Shown piece by piece: positions 2,695-37,215 of a stretch of DNA of 64,000 nt (its first letter is position 1; each line of letters opens with the position of its first letter). The position numbers and the translations under genes are program-made. The stretch is from a bacterium (GTDB lineage: Bacteria; Calditrichota; Calditrichia; RBG-13-44-9; J042). Below the pieces are notes generated by a model. It was not told the DNA's origin and did no database searches. It worked only from the letters and a program-made list of their open reading frames with translations. The DNA lies in the NCBI GenBank assembly GCA_015485355.1, contig WFTQ01000065.1, positions 17,391 to 81,390 on the forward strand. Reading direction: 5' to 3'.

Positions 2695-2961
2695 AAAGGA
2701 AGACCGAAATCGTGAAAATCACATTGTTATTGCTGATGTTACTGATGACAGGCACTCGACGCCCCGAGGAAACGCCTGCTCATTTTCCAAAGGAGTTGCC
2801 CGGGAATAGAGTTTCGCTTAAACTCCCTCCACACGAATTCGATAATGGATTCAGCCCGGGAGGCAGTCCCTATCCCTGAAGCGGCTCCGGGGCATCGGAA
2901 TAATCCCGGTTCTCTGGACGATCGAAAAAGCAAGGACTTCATATATAATAAGGACAGGGGA

Positions 2962-4605
2962 ATGATCGCAATCTTACACGGATATTTGTTGGAAGGGTCG
3001 GGGAGCAATTTATGGACCCGATCCATTGTTCGATCGCTGGTTCGGGATGGGGAGACGGTACACCTCATGTGCCAGGAAAATCAACCCGAACTGTACGATT
3101 TCATTGCCGAGGCCTATCGGTATCATCGCAACGGGTCCGTAGAAACGATCTTCCGCCGCACGACCGCCTACCAAGGAAAGTGCATATTGCACAAACCCGA
3201 CATCGGTGACGTTTTACCGGTATACGTCTGGGATCATTACGAGGAATTTCCCCGGGTGGTGCCTATGATAGAACTCCCCGACGATGTTCTGGGTCAATAC
3301 ATCGAATGCAATAAAAAGGCCCTACGGAAAATTCTGCAACGTTACCCGGTATCGGTTCTCCACGCCAATCATGCCGTGCTGATGTCGGTGGTGGCCAGGG
3401 AAATATCCCGCGAGACGGGTCGCCCTTATACCATTATGCCCCATGGCAGTGCCATTGAATATACCGTAAAAAAGGATGGGCGATTTTTCCGCTGGGCCGA
3501 AGAGGCTTTTCGGAACGCCGGCCGGATTTTTGTGATCGGCCGGGAAATGCGTACCCGGGTGCTGGAACTGTTCCCGAATATCGCCGATCTTGCGGAACGT
3601 TTGGTGGAACTCAATCTGGGTGTCGATACTCAGATGTTTGTCCCCCTCGAAACCTCTCAGCGACGGGCAACCATCCGGCGGTTGATTGAACATCTTCATG
3701 ATCATCCCCGCGGTAAATCGTCCCGGCAAACCCGAGCCTTTTTGCAGGAAGCCTCTTCCCTTACAAACGCTCAATCCCTTACGGCCCTGACGCAAATGTA
3801 TCGGGAATATCCGGCGAAACTGCCGGATCAGGACGTGGAAGAAAAGCTTTCCCGCATCGACTGGGATCGAGAACCGATTTTACTGTTTGTGGGACGATTG
3901 ATTGCCGGCAAAGGGCTCCATTCGATCCTGGCTGCGCTTCCGGAGGTCTTTTCCCGTTCCCCGGAAGCGCGCTTACTGGTTGTGGGACACGGCCCGCTTC
4001 GAGAAGCCATGGAATTGCTGGTTTATGCTCTGTCCACAGGAAACCGACCGCTGGCCGAACAGATTGTGCACCTGGGCAGGGCCTTGGAGGGCGGTCCGCG
4101 GGAACCGTTGGTCACAATTCAGTATTACTGGCAAAGATTGAAACGAGAAGGACGTTGGGCGTCTTACTGGCAAACCGCTCAACGGTATCTTTCGCTGGAA
4201 AGGGTGGTATTTACCGGCTACCTGACCCATGCCGAACTGCGCTATCTGTTTCCTTGTTGCGATGTGGCCATTTTCCCTTCGGTAGTGGCGGAAGCCGGTC
4301 CACTGGTCTTTCTGGAGGCTCTATCTGCGGGATGTTTTCCCATGGGAACGGATTTTGCGGGGATGGCTGCCAGCATCGATGCCGTCTCCGCTTATCTGCC
4401 CCCACCGGTGGTGGAGTATATGAAAATCCGCCCGGATGCCGCGCACACCGTGGAGGATATAGCAACGAAAGCCCCTTTGGCCCTGAGCGAAGCATCCCGG
4501 TATAAGGAATCGCTGCGGAAGGCGGCTGTCGAGCGCTATGACTGGCGCCGTGTGGCCGGGCGCTTTTCCCGGGAACTGCATCAGCTGGGGACCATCCGCT
4601 CCTGA
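2962..4605 (+). CDS. Glycosyltransferase family 4 (GT-B)
   Basis: Likely start MIAILHGYLLEGSGS at 2962; LFVGRLIAGKG and FPSVVAEAGPLVFLEAL motifs. Confidence 0.88.
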   Translation: MIAILHGYLLEGSGSNLWTRSIVRSLVRDGETVHLMCQENQPELYDFIAEAYRYHRNGSVETIFRRTTAYQGKCILHKPDIGDVLPVYVWDHYEEFPRVVPMIELPDDVLGQYIECNKKALRKILQRYPVSVLHANHAVLMSVVAREISRETGRPYTIMPHGSAIEYTVKKDGRFFRWAEEAFRNAGRIFVIGREMRTRVLELFPNIADLAERLVELNLGVDTQMFVPLETSQRRATIRRLIEHLHDHPRGKSSRQTRAFLQEASSLTNAQSLTALTQMYREYPAKLPDQDVEEKLSRIDWDREPILLFVGRLIAGKGLHSILAALPEVFSRSPEARLLVVGHGPLREAMELLVYALSTGNRPLAEQIVHLGRALEGGPREPLVTIQYYWQRLKREGRWASYWQTAQRYLSLERVVFTGYLTHAELRYLFPCCDVAIFPSVVAEAGPLVFLEALSAGCFPMGTDFAGMAASIDAVSAYLPPPVVEYMKIRPDAAHTVEDIATKAPLALSEASRYKESLRKAAVERYDWRRVAGRFSRELHQLGTIRS

Positions 4606-31304: not shown

Positions 31305-33176
31305 ATGCGCACAAATGTTCTGGATGGCTCTGGGGAGGCGCCTTCCTCCTCCGCGCCGAGGTTGCCCGAGCGGCGGGAGATCGATTCCCGATACCAATGG
31401 CGACCGGAAGCCATTTATCCCTCTCTAAAGGCCTGGGAAGCGGACTATGAAAAGGTCCGGCGGATGATGACCGGGATGGACGCTTTTCTAGGGCGTTTGG
31501 GAGAGTCTGCCGAAACCCTTCTGGCCTGCCTGCGACAACGGGATCGGTTGAACGAGCGGATTGGCAGATTAATATTGTATGCGGGCATACGCAGCGATGA
31601 AGATAGCCGGGTGGCACAGTTTCAGGCGCTGCGGGATCGGGTCGCCGCTTTGGCTGCCGGTTTGCGGCGACATCTGGCCTTCATTCAGCCGGAAATTCTA
31701 TCCCTTCCGGAAGGGAAGTTATGGAACCTGGTTGATCGATTGCCCGAATTGGGTGTCTATCGCCATCATCTGGAGGATATCAAGCGACGGAAAGCCCACG
31801 TGCTTCCTCAACAACAAGAACAGCTGCTGGCCCTGGCCGAAGAGTTTGCCCAGGGACCTTACAATATTTTCAGCATGTTCAACTATGCCGATATCCGGTT
31901 CCCCAGGGTGAAGGATGAGAGCGGTCAGGAAATTGAACTCACTCAGGAGCGTTTCCAGAAATTGTTGGAGTCCGGAAACCGCCGGGTGCGCAAAAATGCC
32001 TTTCTGGCGTTTTATGGAACCTACGAGAAATGGCTGAACACCTTGGCCGCCACCCTTGCCGCAAATATTAAGAAAAATGTTTTTTACGCGAAAGCCCGTC
32101 GGTATGCCTCGTCCCTGGAAGTGGCCCTGGATGAAGAGAATATCCCCCCCGAAGTCTACCAGAATTTGGTGGATACGATGAACCAGAATTTAACGCCGTT
32201 GCATCGATACATCCGTTTCCGCGGCCTTCGGCTTCACCTTTCCACCGTCTATCCCTGGGATTTGTATGTACCTTTAGGAGAGCCCCCTCACTTCAATTTT
32301 TCTTATGAAGAAGCGGTGCAACTGATCACCGAAGCGTTACAACCATTGGGGGAATCCTACCAGAAAGAATTGCGCCGCGGATTTTCCGAAGGATGGATCG
32401 ATGTGTTCGAAAATCGGGGCAAGCGAGCAGGGGCCTACTCCTGGTCCACTTATGGTGTGCACCCGTTCATTCTGCTGAATTATGATGGAACCTTGCGGAG
32501 CGTTTTTACCCTTGCTCACGAAATGGGGCACGCATTGCATTCCTATTTCACCCAGCAAAAACAACCCTTTATCTACAGCCAGTACGACGTGTTCGTGGCC
32601 GAAGTGGCCTCCACCCTTAACGAAGCCCTGGTGATCGATTACCTGTTGAACATGACCCGGGAACCGGAGAAGAAATTGTATTTATTGAATCAATATGCGG
32701 ATCAGATCGTAAAAACGGTCTACATTCAAACACTGTTTGCCGAATTTGAAAAACTCATCCACGAAAGGGTTGAGGCCGGCGAGGCGCTTACCTCGGAATT
32801 TCTCTGCAACCTGAAGGAAAAACTCTATCGTCGATATTTTGGAAAAGCGTTTAGTTTAGGCAGGCTGTATTGTGTGAACTGGTGCCGGATCCCTCATTTT
32901 TATTACGGCTTTTATGTGTATAAATATGTGACCGGATACTCGGCCGCCGTCGCACTGTCGCAACGCATTCTTTCCGGGGATGTCGCAGCACGGAATGCTT
33001 ATCTGGATTTTCTTTCCCGCGGAGGTTCCGACTATCCCCTGAACCTGCTGAAAGATGCCGGTGTGGACCTGACTCGTCCGGAACCCCTTCAAGCCACCGC
33101 CCAGCTGCTGGATCGGCTGGTGGAAGCAATGGAAACCATGGGAGGAATCAAGGATACCTCGGCTCCAGGGCGTTGA
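31305..33176 (+). CDS. pepF: Oligoendopeptidase F (M3B)
   Basis: GKRAGAYS, TLAHEMGH zinc motif, FVAEVAS, RIPHFY, GGSDYP. Confidence 0.95.
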   Translation: MRTNVLDGSGEAPSSSAPRLPERREIDSRYQWRPEAIYPSLKAWEADYEKVRRMMTGMDAFLGRLGESAETLLACLRQRDRLNERIGRLILYAGIRSDEDSRVAQFQALRDRVAALAAGLRRHLAFIQPEILSLPEGKLWNLVDRLPELGVYRHHLEDIKRRKAHVLPQQQEQLLALAEEFAQGPYNIFSMFNYADIRFPRVKDESGQEIELTQERFQKLLESGNRRVRKNAFLAFYGTYEKWLNTLAATLAANIKKNVFYAKARRYASSLEVALDEENIPPEVYQNLVDTMNQNLTPLHRYIRFRGLRLHLSTVYPWDLYVPLGEPPHFNFSYEEAVQLITEALQPLGESYQKELRRGFSEGWIDVFENRGKRAGAYSWSTYGVHPFILLNYDGTLRSVFTLAHEMGHALHSYFTQQKQPFIYSQYDVFVAEVASTLNEALVIDYLLNMTREPEKKLYLLNQYADQIVKTVYIQTLFAEFEKLIHERVEAGEALTSEFLCNLKEKLYRRYFGKAFSLGRLYCVNWCRIPHFYYGFYVYKYVTGYSAAVALSQRILSGDVAARNAYLDFLSRGGSDYPLNLLKDAGVDLTRPEPLQATAQLLDRLVEAMETMGGIKDTSAPGR

Positions 33177-33227
33177 ACCTGGCATTATAAATATTCGGAC
33201 TATAATGTCCACAATTTGCTTTCGTTA

Positions 33228-33256
33228 TTGCTTCTTATCCGGAAAACGGTTAATAT
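33228..33256 (+). promoter_or_regulatory. Putative promoter of the copper-uptake locus
   Basis: TTGCTT-N17-TAATAT. Confidence 0.5.
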
Positions 33257-33297
33257 AAAGGCCACGAAGGAATCGATTCAATGAGGGCGGAAGGTTG

Positions 33298-33720
33298 ATG
33301 AGGCGGGTATTGGTTTGTGGCGTGGTCTTCTTTTTACTCGGTTTCGGTAGCGGGTTTCCGCTGTTTCTGGCACCGGGGGTCGGTTCGGCTGCTCCTCATG
33401 CTCATGGTACCTGCCGGTGCGGTTGTGCCGCAGATGAACATGCCGATTGTGATGGCGGATGTTGTGGTGCGGCGGCAGTAACCGGCCAGGTGGGTATTTG
33501 CTCGTTCACTTGCAGCTGTTATTCCCATCCGCCCCAGCTTATCCCCCTGACGCTGAAATGGATCTTACCCCGCACTATTCCATTGGTGAATATCCCCAGG
33601 GATGGGCGGTGGTTGGGAGACATTTTCATTCCCGGGCCTCTGGCGGTTCCCGACTCTCCCGATCACCCTCCGGAAAACCTCTCCAGCAGTTTTACCTCCT
33701 GGCATTTCGAAATCGTCTGA
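33298..33720 (+). CDS. Cys/His-rich exported leader ORF (DUF2946/CruR-like architecture)
   Basis: Hydrophobic N-terminus, HAHGTCRCGC, CDGGCC, CSFTCSC, Pro-rich tail with PDSPDHPP. Confidence 0.7.
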   Translation: MRRVLVCGVVFFLLGFGSGFPLFLAPGVGSAAPHAHGTCRCGCAADEHADCDGGCCGAAAVTGQVGICSFTCSCYSHPPQLIPLTLKWILPRTIPLVNIPRDGRWLGDIFIPGPLAVPDSPDHPPENLSSSFTSWHFEIV

Positions 33721-33970
33721 AAGAGCCGGTAAGGGATCCCGCTTCCCGATGATCCCGGCAACCGTGACCCGGTTCTCGACAGGGCGGGCAGGGATCGGCT
33801 CGGTCAATCCCTGTGGTTTGCTGCTCTTCCTGGTTCAAAGACGCTCCTCTTGGGAATGGAGCTATGCCGCTGCCCGGCGGGTCTCAACGCGGAAAGAAGC
33901 GCCCCGGCTCTTGGAAACAACAGTGAAAATCATTCGCTGCTTCTCCCGAAATTAGGAAAAGCAGCAAATA
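33721..33970 (+). promoter_or_regulatory. Structured cis-regulatory RNA between leader ORF and ytkA-like gene
   Basis: Helices 33721-29/33904-12, 33733-38/33751-56, 33789-95/33807-13, 33936-42/33959-65 and competing 33817-35/33950-68. Confidence 0.55.
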
Positions 33971-34000
33971 CTGGTGTCAAACGTTTCCGGAGGAATCAAT

Positions 34001-34798
34001 ATGAAAGCGTCTCTGCTTCTTTTCATTACCTTGGTGATTGGAATTTGGCTTTTCTCTTGTAACCGAAACAGCACCGGGGTTGATCCCGAACCTGATCCCA
34101 CCAAGGATTTGCATCGGATAGCCACCGGCGAACTGGAAAAGACCCTGGTAACGGTTTATTCGGATGCATCCTTACAAACGGGGTATTGCCGGATTTACGT
34201 GTTGTTAAAAGACCGGAACACAGGAAAAGTCTTACAAAAGGCCCGGATACAGATGACTCCCATAATGGATATGGGAGATATGAAACACAGTGCTCCCTGT
34301 GAAAATCCCCAGACCGGCTATGCGGAGAATGGATTGTTCCCGTGTGGGGCGGTTTTCATCATGTCGGGTACCTGGCAACTGGAGTTCCTCTTGCAGGAGC
34401 TGGAAAATGGTGATGCGGGTAAGGTGGTTGTTCCGGTGCAAGTGGCTCCCGCAAACCGCCTGAAGCAGGAGACCGGCAGCGACAGTGCCCACTATTTTCT
34501 GGCCCTGGTGGAACCTCGTTCCCCAAAGGTGGGAATCAACACTTTTGAAATCACCATTCATCAACAAGAATCCATGATGGCCTTTCCTGCCGTAACGGAT
34601 GTTGAAGTGACCATGGAACCGACCATGCCGTCCATGGGACACGGTTCACCCAATAATGAACACCCTATCCACAAGGGGAAAGGGCATTACCGGGGGAAAG
34701 TCAATTTTACCATGTCCGGGGCCTGGCAAATCGCTCTGCGGGTCTCTCGTAATGGACAATTGCTGCTGCAAACGATGTTTGATCTTCAGGTGCCCTGA
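34001..34798 (+). CDS. YtkA/FixH-family lipoprotein, two Met/His-rich Ig-like domains
   Basis: SD GGAGG, lipobox LFSC, PIMDMGDMKHSAP..FIMSGTW and PTMPSMGHGSP..VNFTMSGAW. Confidence 0.85.
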   Translation: MKASLLLFITLVIGIWLFSCNRNSTGVDPEPDPTKDLHRIATGELEKTLVTVYSDASLQTGYCRIYVLLKDRNTGKVLQKARIQMTPIMDMGDMKHSAPCENPQTGYAENGLFPCGAVFIMSGTWQLEFLLQELENGDAGKVVVPVQVAPANRLKQETGSDSAHYFLALVEPRSPKVGINTFEITIHQQESMMAFPAVTDVEVTMEPTMPSMGHGSPNNEHPIHKGKGHYRGKVNFTMSGAWQIALRVSRNGQLLLQTMFDLQVP

Positions 34799-34920
34799 CC
34801 CGATTGTTCGCTCCTTCAGTGGGGTGAGGTAAGGGACGGTTCCATGCCCTCGGGATTTCCCGATGGGCATGGAAATCAATGGATGGTTTCGATGGAGAAT
34901 CCAAACAAGGAGTTTGTCGG

Positions 34921-37215
34921 GTGAAGCGAATACCCATTTTCGAGAAAATTGCGATCCGCGTTTCTGGCAAGAACGGAGCGTTCTGCGGCCGGTTTACCCG
35001 GATAGGTCCGTGGATTTTTCTGATGGTAATGATCATCCAATCCATGGTTTCTGCTCAAGAAACGGAAGGTGTATTGGCGGGGCAGGTGCGGGATAAGGAA
35101 ACAGGAGCACCGGTGCCGTTTGCTAACATAAAGGTGCTGGGTACTCCGCTGGGAACCGCCGGGGATTCCAGTGGCAATTTCTGGATGCGGTTGCCTCCGG
35201 GCCGTTATCGGTTGGCGATCTCTTCTCTGGGTTATGCCCCGGGCTATGTCAATGCTCAAGTTCATGCCATGCGGAATACCTTGGTTGAGATTTTCTTAAC
35301 CCCGGTTGCCATTCAATATGCCGAAGAAGTGGTGGTTTATGGAGATTCCGAAGCCCGGCGGCCGGCGGTTCGATTGAACCGCACCGAAGCCCTTATGGAA
35401 CGGATGGAGGGTATGGCTCTGATCAAACGGGCTGACTTTGCTTGGGAGCCTTCCATCCGCGGGATGAGTGCCGCACAGATTGGTGTGGTGATTGACGGGA
35501 TGAAAATCTTCAGCGCATGTGTGGACCGAATGGACCCGGTGACGGCCTACGTAGAGGTGGAAAATCTGAAAGAGTTGGATATCCGCAAAGGAGGATTCGA
35601 CCTGACGCTGGGTGCGTCTGCCGGCGGTACCGTTAATCTGGTGACCTACAAGCCGGAGTTTGACCGCCCGCTTTTGTTACGGATGGAGGCGGGGGTGGAG
35701 TCTGCATCCGCTTTGCGAGTCGCCCGGGGAGAGGCGAATTGGTCGGATGGCACCCTGGCGGTTCGCGCCACCCTTTCGGTGAAACAGGCCGGTGATTTTT
35801 ATGCCGGCGGAGGCCGGCGCATCCGGAATTCCGGATATCGAAAATACAATTTTCATGTCGGTTTTTCCCGCAGGTGGGGGACGGACCGACAATTGGAATT
35901 CTCCCTGATCGGCGACGAAGCGCGCGATATCGGATATCCCGTCTTGCTCATGGATGCTCGGAAAACCTCTTCCCGCATCCTGCGTCTGGAGTATTTCTGG
36001 CGCCCCCACGGCCGGGATGGATTCACCCTGCGCAGTAAAATCTATTATAACCACATTCGCCACTGGATGGATGACTTTCAGCGTGATGTGCATCGCCGAA
36101 CCGTGATGCCGGGCATGTACATGCCCATGTTTGGCGAAACCCATACCGTGGGATGGGTGGAAGAAGTTCGGTTGCAAAAGGGAACTCACGTCCTGAAGCT
36201 GTTTCTGGATGGTTACCGAATGCGGGCGTTTGCCGATATGCAAATGATCAGCCTGGATGCCGAAAGTCCCCCGGCCTACCTGATGAACCTGGGCGATGTG
36301 GTGAATGTCCAAGGCGCTCTGGCCCTGGATCACACCGGGATGATCGCTTCCCGATGGTGGATCCGAAACAATGTGCGAGTGGATTTCTCCTCAAGGGATG
36401 TGACCCGTGAATTCGGCCGCAGGGCGCTGACCGGTTTCTGGGAGGGATCGGACACTTACCGGCGTTACTGGACTTTCAGTGCCAGTACTTCCCTGGAATA
36501 TCAATTCAGTGATCACCGGAGCCTGCGTTTCTCTGTGGCCAGTACCCAGCGCATGCCCTCCCATATGGAAAATTATGGTTTTTTCCTTTATAATATCCTG
36601 GATGGGTATTTCTACACCGGGAATCCGAGTGTATTACCGGAATGGAGTCGTCAGGCAGAGCTGGTATTCGAACAATTTTCCCGCCCCCTCCGTTTCCGCA
36701 TGGTGGGGTTTGTCAACGACGTGCGCAATTACATAAGTGGAATGGTGCAGTCGAAGGAATTTAAGGTATACACCAATCTGTCTTCTGTATACTGGCTGGG
36801 GGCCGAAATGCGGGGGGAGTGGGAGGTCCGGGAACATCTGGCTACCCGGTGGAGCATTGCCTACACCCGCGGTCATAATCGAGAGTTCAAAGAACCCTTG
36901 CCGTTGATTCCGCCGCTGGAAGCCATGGTCAGTGTCGATTGCCGGTGGGATAAATTCCGGCTGGCGCTGGAAGGGCGGTTTGCGGCTCCCCAAAACCGCA
37001 TTGCCACACGAACCACTCTGGAAGATAAAACCCCGGGATTTGTTCTACTGAATCTGCGGCTCCAGTTTCCTTTGGCACCCTGGTTGAAAATAAGATTAGG
37101 AATGGAAAATGTGCTGGATCGCTATTATCATGAACACTTGAGCATCAACAACTTACCCGGGAGAGGCCGCAATATGTACCTGATGTTTCGCATCCTTTTT
37201 CCCCCAGAGGGTTAG
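34921..37215 (+). CDS. TonB-dependent receptor, OprC-like putative copper transporter
   Basis: SD AAGGAG before GTG 34921; CarboxypepD-like N-domain, plug SIRG..IDG..SACVDRMDP, HWMDD, MPGMYMPM, ENVLDRYYHEHL..PGRGRN. Confidence 0.88.
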   Translation: MKRIPIFEKIAIRVSGKNGAFCGRFTRIGPWIFLMVMIIQSMVSAQETEGVLAGQVRDKETGAPVPFANIKVLGTPLGTAGDSSGNFWMRLPPGRYRLAISSLGYAPGYVNAQVHAMRNTLVEIFLTPVAIQYAEEVVVYGDSEARRPAVRLNRTEALMERMEGMALIKRADFAWEPSIRGMSAAQIGVVIDGMKIFSACVDRMDPVTAYVEVENLKELDIRKGGFDLTLGASAGGTVNLVTYKPEFDRPLLLRMEAGVESASALRVARGEANWSDGTLAVRATLSVKQAGDFYAGGGRRIRNSGYRKYNFHVGFSRRWGTDRQLEFSLIGDEARDIGYPVLLMDARKTSSRILRLEYFWRPHGRDGFTLRSKIYYNHIRHWMDDFQRDVHRRTVMPGMYMPMFGETHTVGWVEEVRLQKGTHVLKLFLDGYRMRAFADMQMISLDAESPPAYLMNLGDVVNVQGALALDHTGMIASRWWIRNNVRVDFSSRDVTREFGRRALTGFWEGSDTYRRYWTFSASTSLEYQFSDHRSLRFSVASTQRMPSHMENYGFFLYNILDGYFYTGNPSVLPEWSRQAELVFEQFSRPLRFRMVGFVNDVRNYISGMVQSKEFKVYTNLSSVYWLGAEMRGEWEVREHLATRWSIAYTRGHNREFKEPLPLIPPLEAMVSVDCRWDKFRLALEGRFAAPQNRIATRTTLEDKTPGFVLLNLRLQFPLAPWLKIRLGMENVLDRYYHEHLSINNLPGRGRNMYLMFRILFPPEG

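Follow-up and report, generated by a model that had tools for sequence, protein, structure and literature searches.

The subject of this analysis is a spacer of 280 nucleotides (nt) that separates a small open reading frame (ORF) of 141 amino acids (aa) from a gene for a YtkA-domain lipoprotein, here called ytkA, in a 64,000-nt stretch (the window) of contig WFTQ01000065.1, which belongs to a Calditrichota genome from hydrothermal-vent metagenomes. The element in question is a helix of 10 base pairs (bp), in which codons of a Pro-Pro-Glu motif close to the end of the small ORF (33667-76) pair perfectly with the strand on which ytkA's Shine-Dalgarno (SD) sequence lies (33984-93), the two strands lying 307 nt apart. 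This helix was absent from an earlier sequence-only reading of the region, which had placed two competing RNA folds in the spacer and proposed them as a translation-coupled switch. A translation-coupled RNA switch is indeed likely in the region, although it would act via a different helix than the one claimed. According to the reading to which we lean, with belief somewhat outweighing doubt, ribosome occupancy of the Pro-Pro (PP) codons would unmask ytkA and the spacer would form the enclosed loop of a long-range mask of its ribosome site. Coordinates of all features are collected in Table 1.

The sequence CCTCCGGAAA is found twice only in the 64-kb window, at 33667-76 on the plus strand and at 33984-93 on the minus strand. 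In the predicted ensemble of the segment 33640-34030, the helix between PP codons and SD has a pairing probability (P) of 0.97 and the SD is unpaired with a probability of 0.00; the SD of the downstream gene is by prediction base-paired in ribosome-free mRNA. The same helix closes both the minimum free energy (MFE) and the centroid structures. The fold gains definition when the ORF tail is included: 33655-34005 has z = -2.18, a stability that 4 of 100 shuffles match, and its centroid and MFE structures are almost the same, whereas in the spacer alone the two are far apart. The 3′ strand 33950-93 is almost wholly paired, with 33816-35, 33687-90 and 33667-76 in turn, and a 19-position helix within the spacer, described below, continues the PP-codon/SD stem on its inside. 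Ribosome footprints were modelled as masks, covering 33703-33 for a terminating ribosome and 33655-86 for a ribosome on the PP codons. The latter mask raises the unpaired probability of the SD from 0.00 to 0.28, while masks over 33680-711 or 33703-33 leave it at 0.00. With the 5′ boundary of the folded segment at 33688-92 the SD is still paired (unpaired 0.02); a second CCUCC lies in the ORF tail at 33695-99.

Comparative support comes from a genome of the same genus (G001), in which the ORF is 41% identical and the spacer measures 305 nt. There the Pro-Pro-Glu-Leu codons CCUCCUGAAU (L007 2663-72) and AUUCAGGAGG (2967-76) form 10 perfect pairs, and further pairing extends across the stop codon (2673-81 with 2956-64). 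Relative to the window genome (G000), position 6 changes from G:C to U:A and position 10 from A:U to U:A, none being left unpaired. In G001, the unpaired probability of the SD stays at 0.00 as long as the 5′ boundary lies before 2663 and becomes 0.18-0.27 beyond it. Chance pairing was estimated by synonymous-codon resampling, keeping the peptide and using the codon usage of the window (5000 trials), where CCU is a minority Pro codon (130/897). A perfect complement of at least 10 nt covering the SD arose in 135 of the 5000 resamplings for G000 (2.7%) and in 105 for G001 (2.1%). In nine of 14 loci of SD-using lineages, pairing between the SD and the stretch that runs from PP-6 to stop+3 has a P of at least 0.75; the spacers measure 41 to 305 nt, and when the tails are shuffled, the mean falls to 0.13-0.28 and 0-2 of 30 shuffles reach the observed value. 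Tail-to-SD pairing is claimed here for the SD-using lineages and not for the whole family, because the effect over the 75 loci of the whole family is weak; pairing of the tail with the ribosome-binding site (RBS) is absent in the Bacteroidota loci, which mostly lack an obvious SD.

A strain about 97% identical gives a view of recent divergence. A look through sequencing runs found the region in five DNA runs from two studies and listed no RNA run; the run X5 of the second study carries a variant with eight substitutions and one deletion in the 280-nt spacer, compared with six listed differences (eight counted in the record table) in 378 nt of the ORF, so that the spacer diverges about twice as fast as the ORF. 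No difference falls in either strand of the PP-codon/SD helix, and its P stays at 0.97 in the variant. The inner hairpins of the spacer, 33789-813 and 33843-62, carry uncompensated changes and their P falls to 0.11 and 0.00, respectively. More generally, all 13 family spacers of at least 190 nt fold below the shuffle mean (z -0.8 to -8.9). Two of them, from other genomes, exceed their shuffles in structure by a wide margin: the L064 spacer (2738-3003; z -5.1) contains two direct copies of a unit of about 24 nt, and the L082 spacer (2596-2988; z -8.9) contains a long near-perfect inverted repeat; by sequence, both look like inserted repeat elements or elements of the kind known as miniature inverted-repeat transposable elements.

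How such a helix could control translation can be outlined as follows. In ribosome-free mRNA, the codons of Pro125, Pro126 and Glu127 would pair with the SD strand and the 19-position helix (33817-35/33950-68) would lengthen the stem inside, closing the downstream site. A ribosome on the PP codons would occupy the anti-SD strand and the site would open, the dwell being longest if the nascent Cys-rich peptide stalls at PP, as in CutF, CruR or SecM. Once the ribosome is beyond PP, the stop codon included, the mask would re-form, and translation of ytkA and of the TonB-dependent receptor gene that follows it would thus scale with the time that ribosomes dwell at PP. Stalling at PP, the metal signal and any effect on expression are inferred parts of this outline, while the helices with their statistics, the covariation with G001 and the recurrent tail-to-SD pairing in relatives were observed. 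The traits of the ORF family counted in its favour are the invariant C-terminal PP, an invariant Cys and a hydrophobic N-terminus; elongation factor P (EF-P) is encoded in the genome. Stalling at a Pro-rich C-terminus that melts an SD-shielding stem has a published precedent in CutF (PMC9973294, bioRxiv 10.1101/2025.02.05.636593).

Several points weigh against this reading. All the structures are thermodynamic predictions, and modelled unmasking is partial (SD unpaired 0.28). The CCUCC:GGAGG pairing is nearly free whenever Pro-Pro is encoded as CCU-CCN ahead of a gene led by an SD, and what carries the argument is only five further pairs and the covariation of two positions between two species. 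For a helix of 10 bp to close a loop of some 300 nt, the enclosed domain must fold compactly; Öztürk et al. expected stalling to drive such melting only where the intergenic region is short (PMC9973294). No such pairing is seen in five of the 14 SD-lineage loci (L012, L069, L008, L015 and L040). Over 75 loci, the tail-to-RBS duplex is weak (mean z -0.57 and -0.24), with p < 0.05 in 13 loci against shuffled tails or nine against other windows of the locus where about four are expected, and for G000 alone p is 0.04 and 0.067 under the two nulls. The depth of the X5 contig is 2.4-5.2, and some of its differences may be errors. Finally, a repeat search (seed 7, minimum length 9, 33640-34010) did not list the 10-nt inverted repeat formed by the PP codons and the SD, which a direct sequence search confirmed; the palindromic core TCCGGA may be the cause of the miss.

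Within the spacer, the helices described by the sequence-only reading are present as such. The helix that starts at the first base after the stop codon (H1, 33721-29/33904-12) comprises 9 nt with 100% complementarity, and the inner hairpins 33789-813 and 33843-62 occur in predicted folds. The local hairpin extends over 33932-46/33955-69, with its core GCTGCTT/AAGCAGC at 33936-42/33959-65. For the competing helix, the repeat search gives 33817-31/33954-68 and inspection by eye gives 33817-35/33950-68, that is, 19 positions with 16 Watson-Crick pairs, two G-U pairs and one mismatch. Its strand A and the 5′ arm of the local hairpin (strand B) are near-repeats that use the same partner (strand C, 33950-68), and the helices A:C and B:C are mutually exclusive. 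The H1-type fold also has an outer helix, GGAAAC at 33913-18 pairing with GUUUCC at 33983-88, whose P is 0.77-0.94 in the spacer alone and 0.000 in full context. The significance of the helices was assessed with 500 dinucleotide shuffles of 33721-34000. A perfect helix of at least 9 bp anywhere occurs in 66 of these (13.2%), so that H1 is ordinary as a helix, while one starting at the first base occurs in two, by a criterion chosen post hoc. The 19-position helix has a gapless score of 31 against a shuffle mean of 19.3 (standard deviation 2.4), which is reached in none of the 500. The stability of the spacer alone is unremarkable (z = -1.19, 29 of 200 shuffles folding as well; z = -0.95 in a second test).

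Which of these folds prevails depends on how much of the RNA is folded. In the isolated spacer (33721-34030), which is genuinely bistable in silico with two near-isoenergetic folds, the free ensemble has H1 at 0.80, the local hairpin at 0.81 and the competing helix at 0.13 (H1 ranges over 0.80-0.91 in spacer-alone foldings). Forcing 33721-35 to be unpaired brings these values to 0, 0.01 and 0.94, a rearrangement of 146 base pairs that is matched in 2 of 150 shuffles, and forcing the competing helix costs 1.3 kcal/mol (-104.7 vs -106.0). The swap foreseen by the sequence-only reading under this constraint thus takes place in the isolated spacer, but one fold dominates once the ORF tail is included: in 33640-34030, the competing helix reaches 0.95 while H1 and the local hairpin sink to 0.002, and H1 can be imposed at a cost of 6.4 kcal/mol. 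The drop to 0.002 holds for any 5′ boundary at or before 33668; with boundaries from 33672 to 33720, the balance flips erratically in 4-nt steps. The idea that a ribosome at the stop codon and one stalled at the Asp-His-Pro-Pro (DHPP) sequence would select different folds fares poorly. By modelling, ribosome positions barely toggle the two folds, since the terminating mask gives 0.95 for the competing helix and 0 for H1 and the PP-codon mask gives 0.80 and 0.14. Neither helix contains an SD or a terminator, and the proposed switch is therefore without an output.

Neither helix was found again when looked for in the relative of the same genus and in further spacers of the family. The best spacer helix of G001 is ordinary (128 of 200 shuffles as good), an exceptional helix is present in two of 10 long spacers only (the window and L015), and a post-stop helix as unusual as 1% or less is confined to one of 13 spacers, that of the window. 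Three aligned spacers match at the RBS end only and are otherwise not alignable. Forcing either spacer fold leaves the SD masked in ribosome-free RNA (P 0.96-0.97). A mask on the PP codons brings the folds to within 1 kcal/mol of one another (-123.4 vs -124.2), and the SD is then unpaired at 0.32 with the 19-position helix and at 0.03 with H1, the low exposure in the H1 fold being probably due to the second CCUCC. This difference in modelled exposure is within model noise and unsupported by conservation. The two spacer folds are best read, from these models, as real alternative shapes of the enclosed loop, specific to this species, on which opening and closing of the ribosome site do not depend.

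Other explanations can be weighed against the same results. The model of the sequence-only reading, in which H1 with the local hairpin and the 19-position helix would be two switch states with an output via Rho or RNA stability, is given little credence. It draws on the bistability of the isolated spacer (competing helix from 0.13 to 0.94 with 33721-35 unpaired), on a rearrangement and on helices that few or no shuffles match (2/150 for the rearrangement, 0/500 for the 19-position helix and 2/500 for a 9-bp helix at nt 1), on the absence of all nine X5 differences from the strands concerned (73 of 280 nt; probability about 0.07) and on the closeness of the folds when the PP codons are masked. 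It is contradicted by the collapse of H1 (0.002, 6.4 kcal/mol costlier) with the ORF tail, the small effect of terminating vs stalled masks, the erratic response to the 5′ boundary, the lack of SD or terminator in either helix, the masking of the SD under either forced fold, the absence of both helices from G001 and other spacers, and the uncompensated X5 changes in the inner hairpins. A variant, regarded as equally improbable, would keep the bistable spacer as a 'memory' between stall site and distant ribosome site that sets how often, and for how long, a stall leads to initiation: at rest the PP-codon/SD and 19-position helices would lock ytkA off, a ribosome at PP would free the anti-SD strand, and the loop would refold between two isoenergetic shapes, one leaving the SD open (0.32 unpaired) and the other giving it to the CCUCC at 33695-99 (0.03). 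If true, arrest-peptide control would here have two layers and act over a long range, in a new family of leaders spread over Calditrichota, Bacteroidota and Ignavibacteria-like genomes.

Attenuation of the CruR type, in which the C-rich 3′ part of the ORF would load Rho, a ribosome stalled at PP would block it, and release would lead to termination in the spacer before ytkA, is unlikely as the main explanation, yet the least improbable of the alternatives; spacer structures would then be at most pause sites, and the two mechanisms could act together. Over 33620-33720 the GC skew runs from -0.33 to -0.44, and over 33480-33600 from -0.23 to -0.43, the spacer being balanced, and the genome encodes Rho (726 bits, above cut-off); a C-rich, G-poor leader 3′ part and Rho in the genome are necessary features of such attenuation and not proof of it. 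The gene order is also that of cruR-bfrG, with a Cys-motif leader carrying PP, a long intergenic region and a copper-type TonB-dependent receptor (PMC9426467). However, the 10-bp SD complement and the G001 covariation are left unexplained, and the spacers of the family, 40 to 504 nt with many near 100, include short ones that leave little room for termination. It could also be that nothing in the spacer is regulatory, the helices and the CCU-CCG/GGAGG match being by-products of composition and close inspection in fast-evolving intergenic DNA. To this view, which we consider quite improbable, belong the ordinary stability of the spacer alone, Rfam results that do not rise above noise (best E 0.65), the lack of spacer DNA similarity in 40 relatives, the X5 spacer with nine differences in 280 nt against six listed (eight counted) in 378 nt of ORF, and the five of 14 relatives without tail-to-SD pairing. 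It does not account for a 19-position helix that no shuffle reaches, for synonymous-codon results of 2.7% and 2.1% in two species, for two covarying helix positions, for the nine of 14 relatives whose tail-to-SD pairing is strong compared with shuffled tails, or for 13 long spacers that all fold below their shuffle means.

The small ORF itself is a real gene and not a short leader. An iterated profile search of genome contigs places a homolog immediately 5′ of a YtkA-like gene in 74 of 80 loci, which span Calditrichota, Bacteroidota, Ignavibacteria-like and other metagenome-assembled genomes (MAGs). Two of the six remaining loci (L011 and L039) are cut by contig ends; in L013, L017, L019 and L072, no leader homolog was found at E ≤ 0.01 despite enough upstream DNA, which is why the pairing of leader and YtkA-like gene is considered frequent and not obligatory. 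L019 is a Caldithrix abyssi MAG that has the YtkA-like gene with no detected ORF of the leader family. By the rules of PMC9973294, 'CutF-like' proteins have fewer than 150 aa, an N-terminal signal peptide and a Cys/His site for metal, PP stands among the last 15 or so residues, and a gene in the same orientation follows within 1000 nt. The protein falls under these rules: it has 141 aa, a Cys/His site, PP and a co-oriented downstream gene at 280 nt, and its N-terminus is hydrophobic as judged by eye. The alignment of 32 members shows no variation at C42, P125 or P126 and hardly any at C52 and C56; PP is preceded by His, Lys or Arg and followed by 2-15 residues, 15 in the window protein and 2-10 in most members. 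Pfam assigns the window protein to no family at E ≤ 0.1, none of the 32 members matches PF11162 (DUF2946) at E ≤ 1, and four members tested against NCBIfam gave no match. The ORF is a member of a wide unnamed family that is built like CutF and CruR and is not DUF2946 by Pfam.

Arrest peptides are among the known systems that come close. In SecM-secA, MifM-yidC2 and VemP-secDF2, a ribosome arrested near the 3′ end of the upstream ORF disrupts a stem that hides an SD, which resembles what is proposed here; their stems are local (tens of nucleotides), their signal is the force of secretion or insertion and not a metal, and their arrest sequences are different. Leader-peptide attenuators of the trp, erm and cat types rely on alternative hairpins biased by ribosome position. 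Strands A and B compete for strand C in a similar manner and ribosome position could bias the choice, but here both alternatives lack the SD, neither of them forms an intrinsic terminator, and relatives do not conserve the arrangement. A summary of the SecM mechanism is also given in the literature on CutF (PMC9973294, bioRxiv 10.1101/2025.02.05.636593).

These same texts describe CutF of the Rhodobacter capsulatus cutFOG operon as a protein with a Sec signal, a CxxxC motif and, at its C-terminus, a proline repeat. Judged against them, the window protein has in common with CutF a length below 150 aa, an export or membrane signal at the N-terminus, a Cys motif for metal, C-terminal prolines, the position as first gene of a metal-homeostasis operon, EF-P in the genome and a next gene whose SD is masked by mRNA pairing with proposed opening by a ribosome at the proline motif. 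The differences lie in the mask and the protein. The anti-SD of cutFOG, CUUC, is part of a stem-loop in the intergenic region, immediately ahead of cutO (PMC9973294); no short local stem-loop of that kind, next to the SD and carrying an anti-SD, is found here, where the anti-SD consists of Pro-Pro-Glu codons 307 nt from the SD and encloses a structured spacer of about 280 nt. There is no DUF2946 match, the motif is [H/K/R]-P-P and not PPP, and downstream lie a YtkA lipoprotein and a TonB receptor (uptake), not an oxidase. CruR (Bp2923) of Bordetella pertussis, encoded in cruR-bfrG-bp2921, carries the motifs CXXC and RAPP; the intergenic region measures 162 nt, and the protein acts through Rho-dependent termination, with the rut site in a C>G bubble inside cruR (PMC9426467). 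Common to both systems are a leader that carries a Cys motif and, shortly before its stop, xxPP, then a long intergenic region followed by a copper-type receptor of the TonB-dependent kind, as well as a leader whose 3′ part is C>G-rich and the presence of Rho. In contrast, regulation there is by Rho-dependent termination, masking of the SD by motif codons is not described in the accessible parts of PMC9426467, and its RAPP motif corresponds to DHPP without Arg-Ala here, with no Pfam match to DUF2946.

The genes around the spacer form a simple array. The small ORF follows a gene for an M3 oligoendopeptidase F, which is also found, in synteny, upstream of the leader in a same-genus genome (L003 3-1205); a promoter-like site between the two (Table 1) is likely, from its sequence, the start of the operon transcript. 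A TTG and then an ATG open the small ORF at 33295-33300 (translation MM...), giving two candidate start codons. For the TonB-dependent receptor, the best NCBIfam model is the copper receptor TIGR01778, at 159 bits and thus below the cut-off of 472. On the plus strand of the spacer, a consensus scan found no promoter-like site, and no terminator-like site was found, with no U-tract after 33965. The local hairpin 33936-65 was considered as a terminator and rejected, being without a following U-run on the plus strand; the terminator scan flags it on the minus strand only, where no gene converges. Rfam 15 covariance models, applied to both strands of 32500-35500, gave no match at or near a gathering score; the best, all on the minus strand and with E of at least 0.65, were tsr31 (23.1 bits, gathering score 50), IsrR (19 bits, 52) and P36 (15.8 bits, 36). 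A DNA search with 33295-34300 in 40 relatives gave no match beyond the genome of the window, and an origin of the spacer from a repeat or mobile element was rejected, as the genome carries one copy only. A metagenome scan with the YtkA-like protein returned two distant loci at 38-40% identity and no close relative. Short direct repeats link the ORF tail (33644-33668) and the spacer (33740-33757), namely CGGTTCCCGACTCTCCCG/CGCTTCCCGATGATCCCG (78%) and TCCCGATCACCC/TCCCGATGATCC (83%); they may be due to chance or to an origin of the spacer by duplication of the ORF 3′ end and are too weak to interpret.

Table 1. Features of the leader ORF, spacer and neighbouring genes, in window coordinates
Feature	Coordinates	Strand	Remarks
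M3 oligoendopeptidase F gene	31305-33176		precedes the small ORF
Promoter-like site CTGGCA-16-TATAAT	33179..33206	+	10/12 consensus matches; between M3 peptidase gene and small ORF
Small ORF, 141 aa	33295..33720	+	TTG 33295, ATG 33298; hydrophobic N-terminus, Cys/His-rich block, C-terminal D-H-P125-P126-E
Anti-SD strand CCUCCGGAAA	33667..33676	+	codons Pro125 CCU, Pro126 CCG, Glu127 GAA and first base of Asn128
Second CCUCC in ORF tail	33695..33699	+	Thr-Ser codons; possible back-up anti-SD, partner presumed
Spacer, 280 nt	33721-34000	+	between small ORF and YtkA-like gene
H1 5′ strand AAGAGCCGG	33721..33729	+	first bases after the stop codon
Strand A of 19-position competing helix	33817..33835	+	inner extension of the SD-masking stem in the predicted full-context fold
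H1 3′ strand CCGGCTCTT (33904-12), then GGAAAC (33913-18)	33904..33918	+	
Strand B, 5′ arm of local hairpin	33936..33947	+	near-repeat of strand A (GCUGCUUCUCC vs GCUGCUCUUCC); competes for strand C
Strand C	33950..33968	+	common 3′ partner of A (long-range) and B (local)
SD strand UUUCCGGAGG	33984..33993	+	holds GGAGG 33989-93, 7 nt before AUG 34001 of the YtkA-like gene
YtkA-domain lipoprotein gene	34001..34798	+	Pfam PF13115 YtkA, E 1.3e-19; signal peptide ends LFSC
TonB-dependent receptor gene	34879..37215	+	PF00593, PF13620, PF07715; N-terminal carboxypeptidase-regulatory-like domain

In a limited literature search, no description was found of an [H/K/R]PP leader linked to YtkA, nor of PP codons that mask over a long range. 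The CutF-like lists of PMC9973294 include Bacteroidota, and the [H/K/R]PP family may already be among the 29 'CutF-like' clusters reported there; what is new here is the long range of the SD masking together with the protein family. One caution of general value is that striking competing helices in a single genome can be species-specific decoration around a conserved element. If the favoured reading is true, arrest-peptide control of a ribosome site would need no short local hairpin, and the stall codons themselves would serve as the anti-SD across a folded spacer of about 300 nt, a range that the CutF authors thought unlikely (PMC9973294). It would also add a large leader family unrecognised by Pfam and NCBIfam, with an invariant Cys and [H/K/R]PP, located upstream of pairs of YtkA and TonB receptor genes in several phyla, and this family would join the CutF/CruR type of metal sensing.

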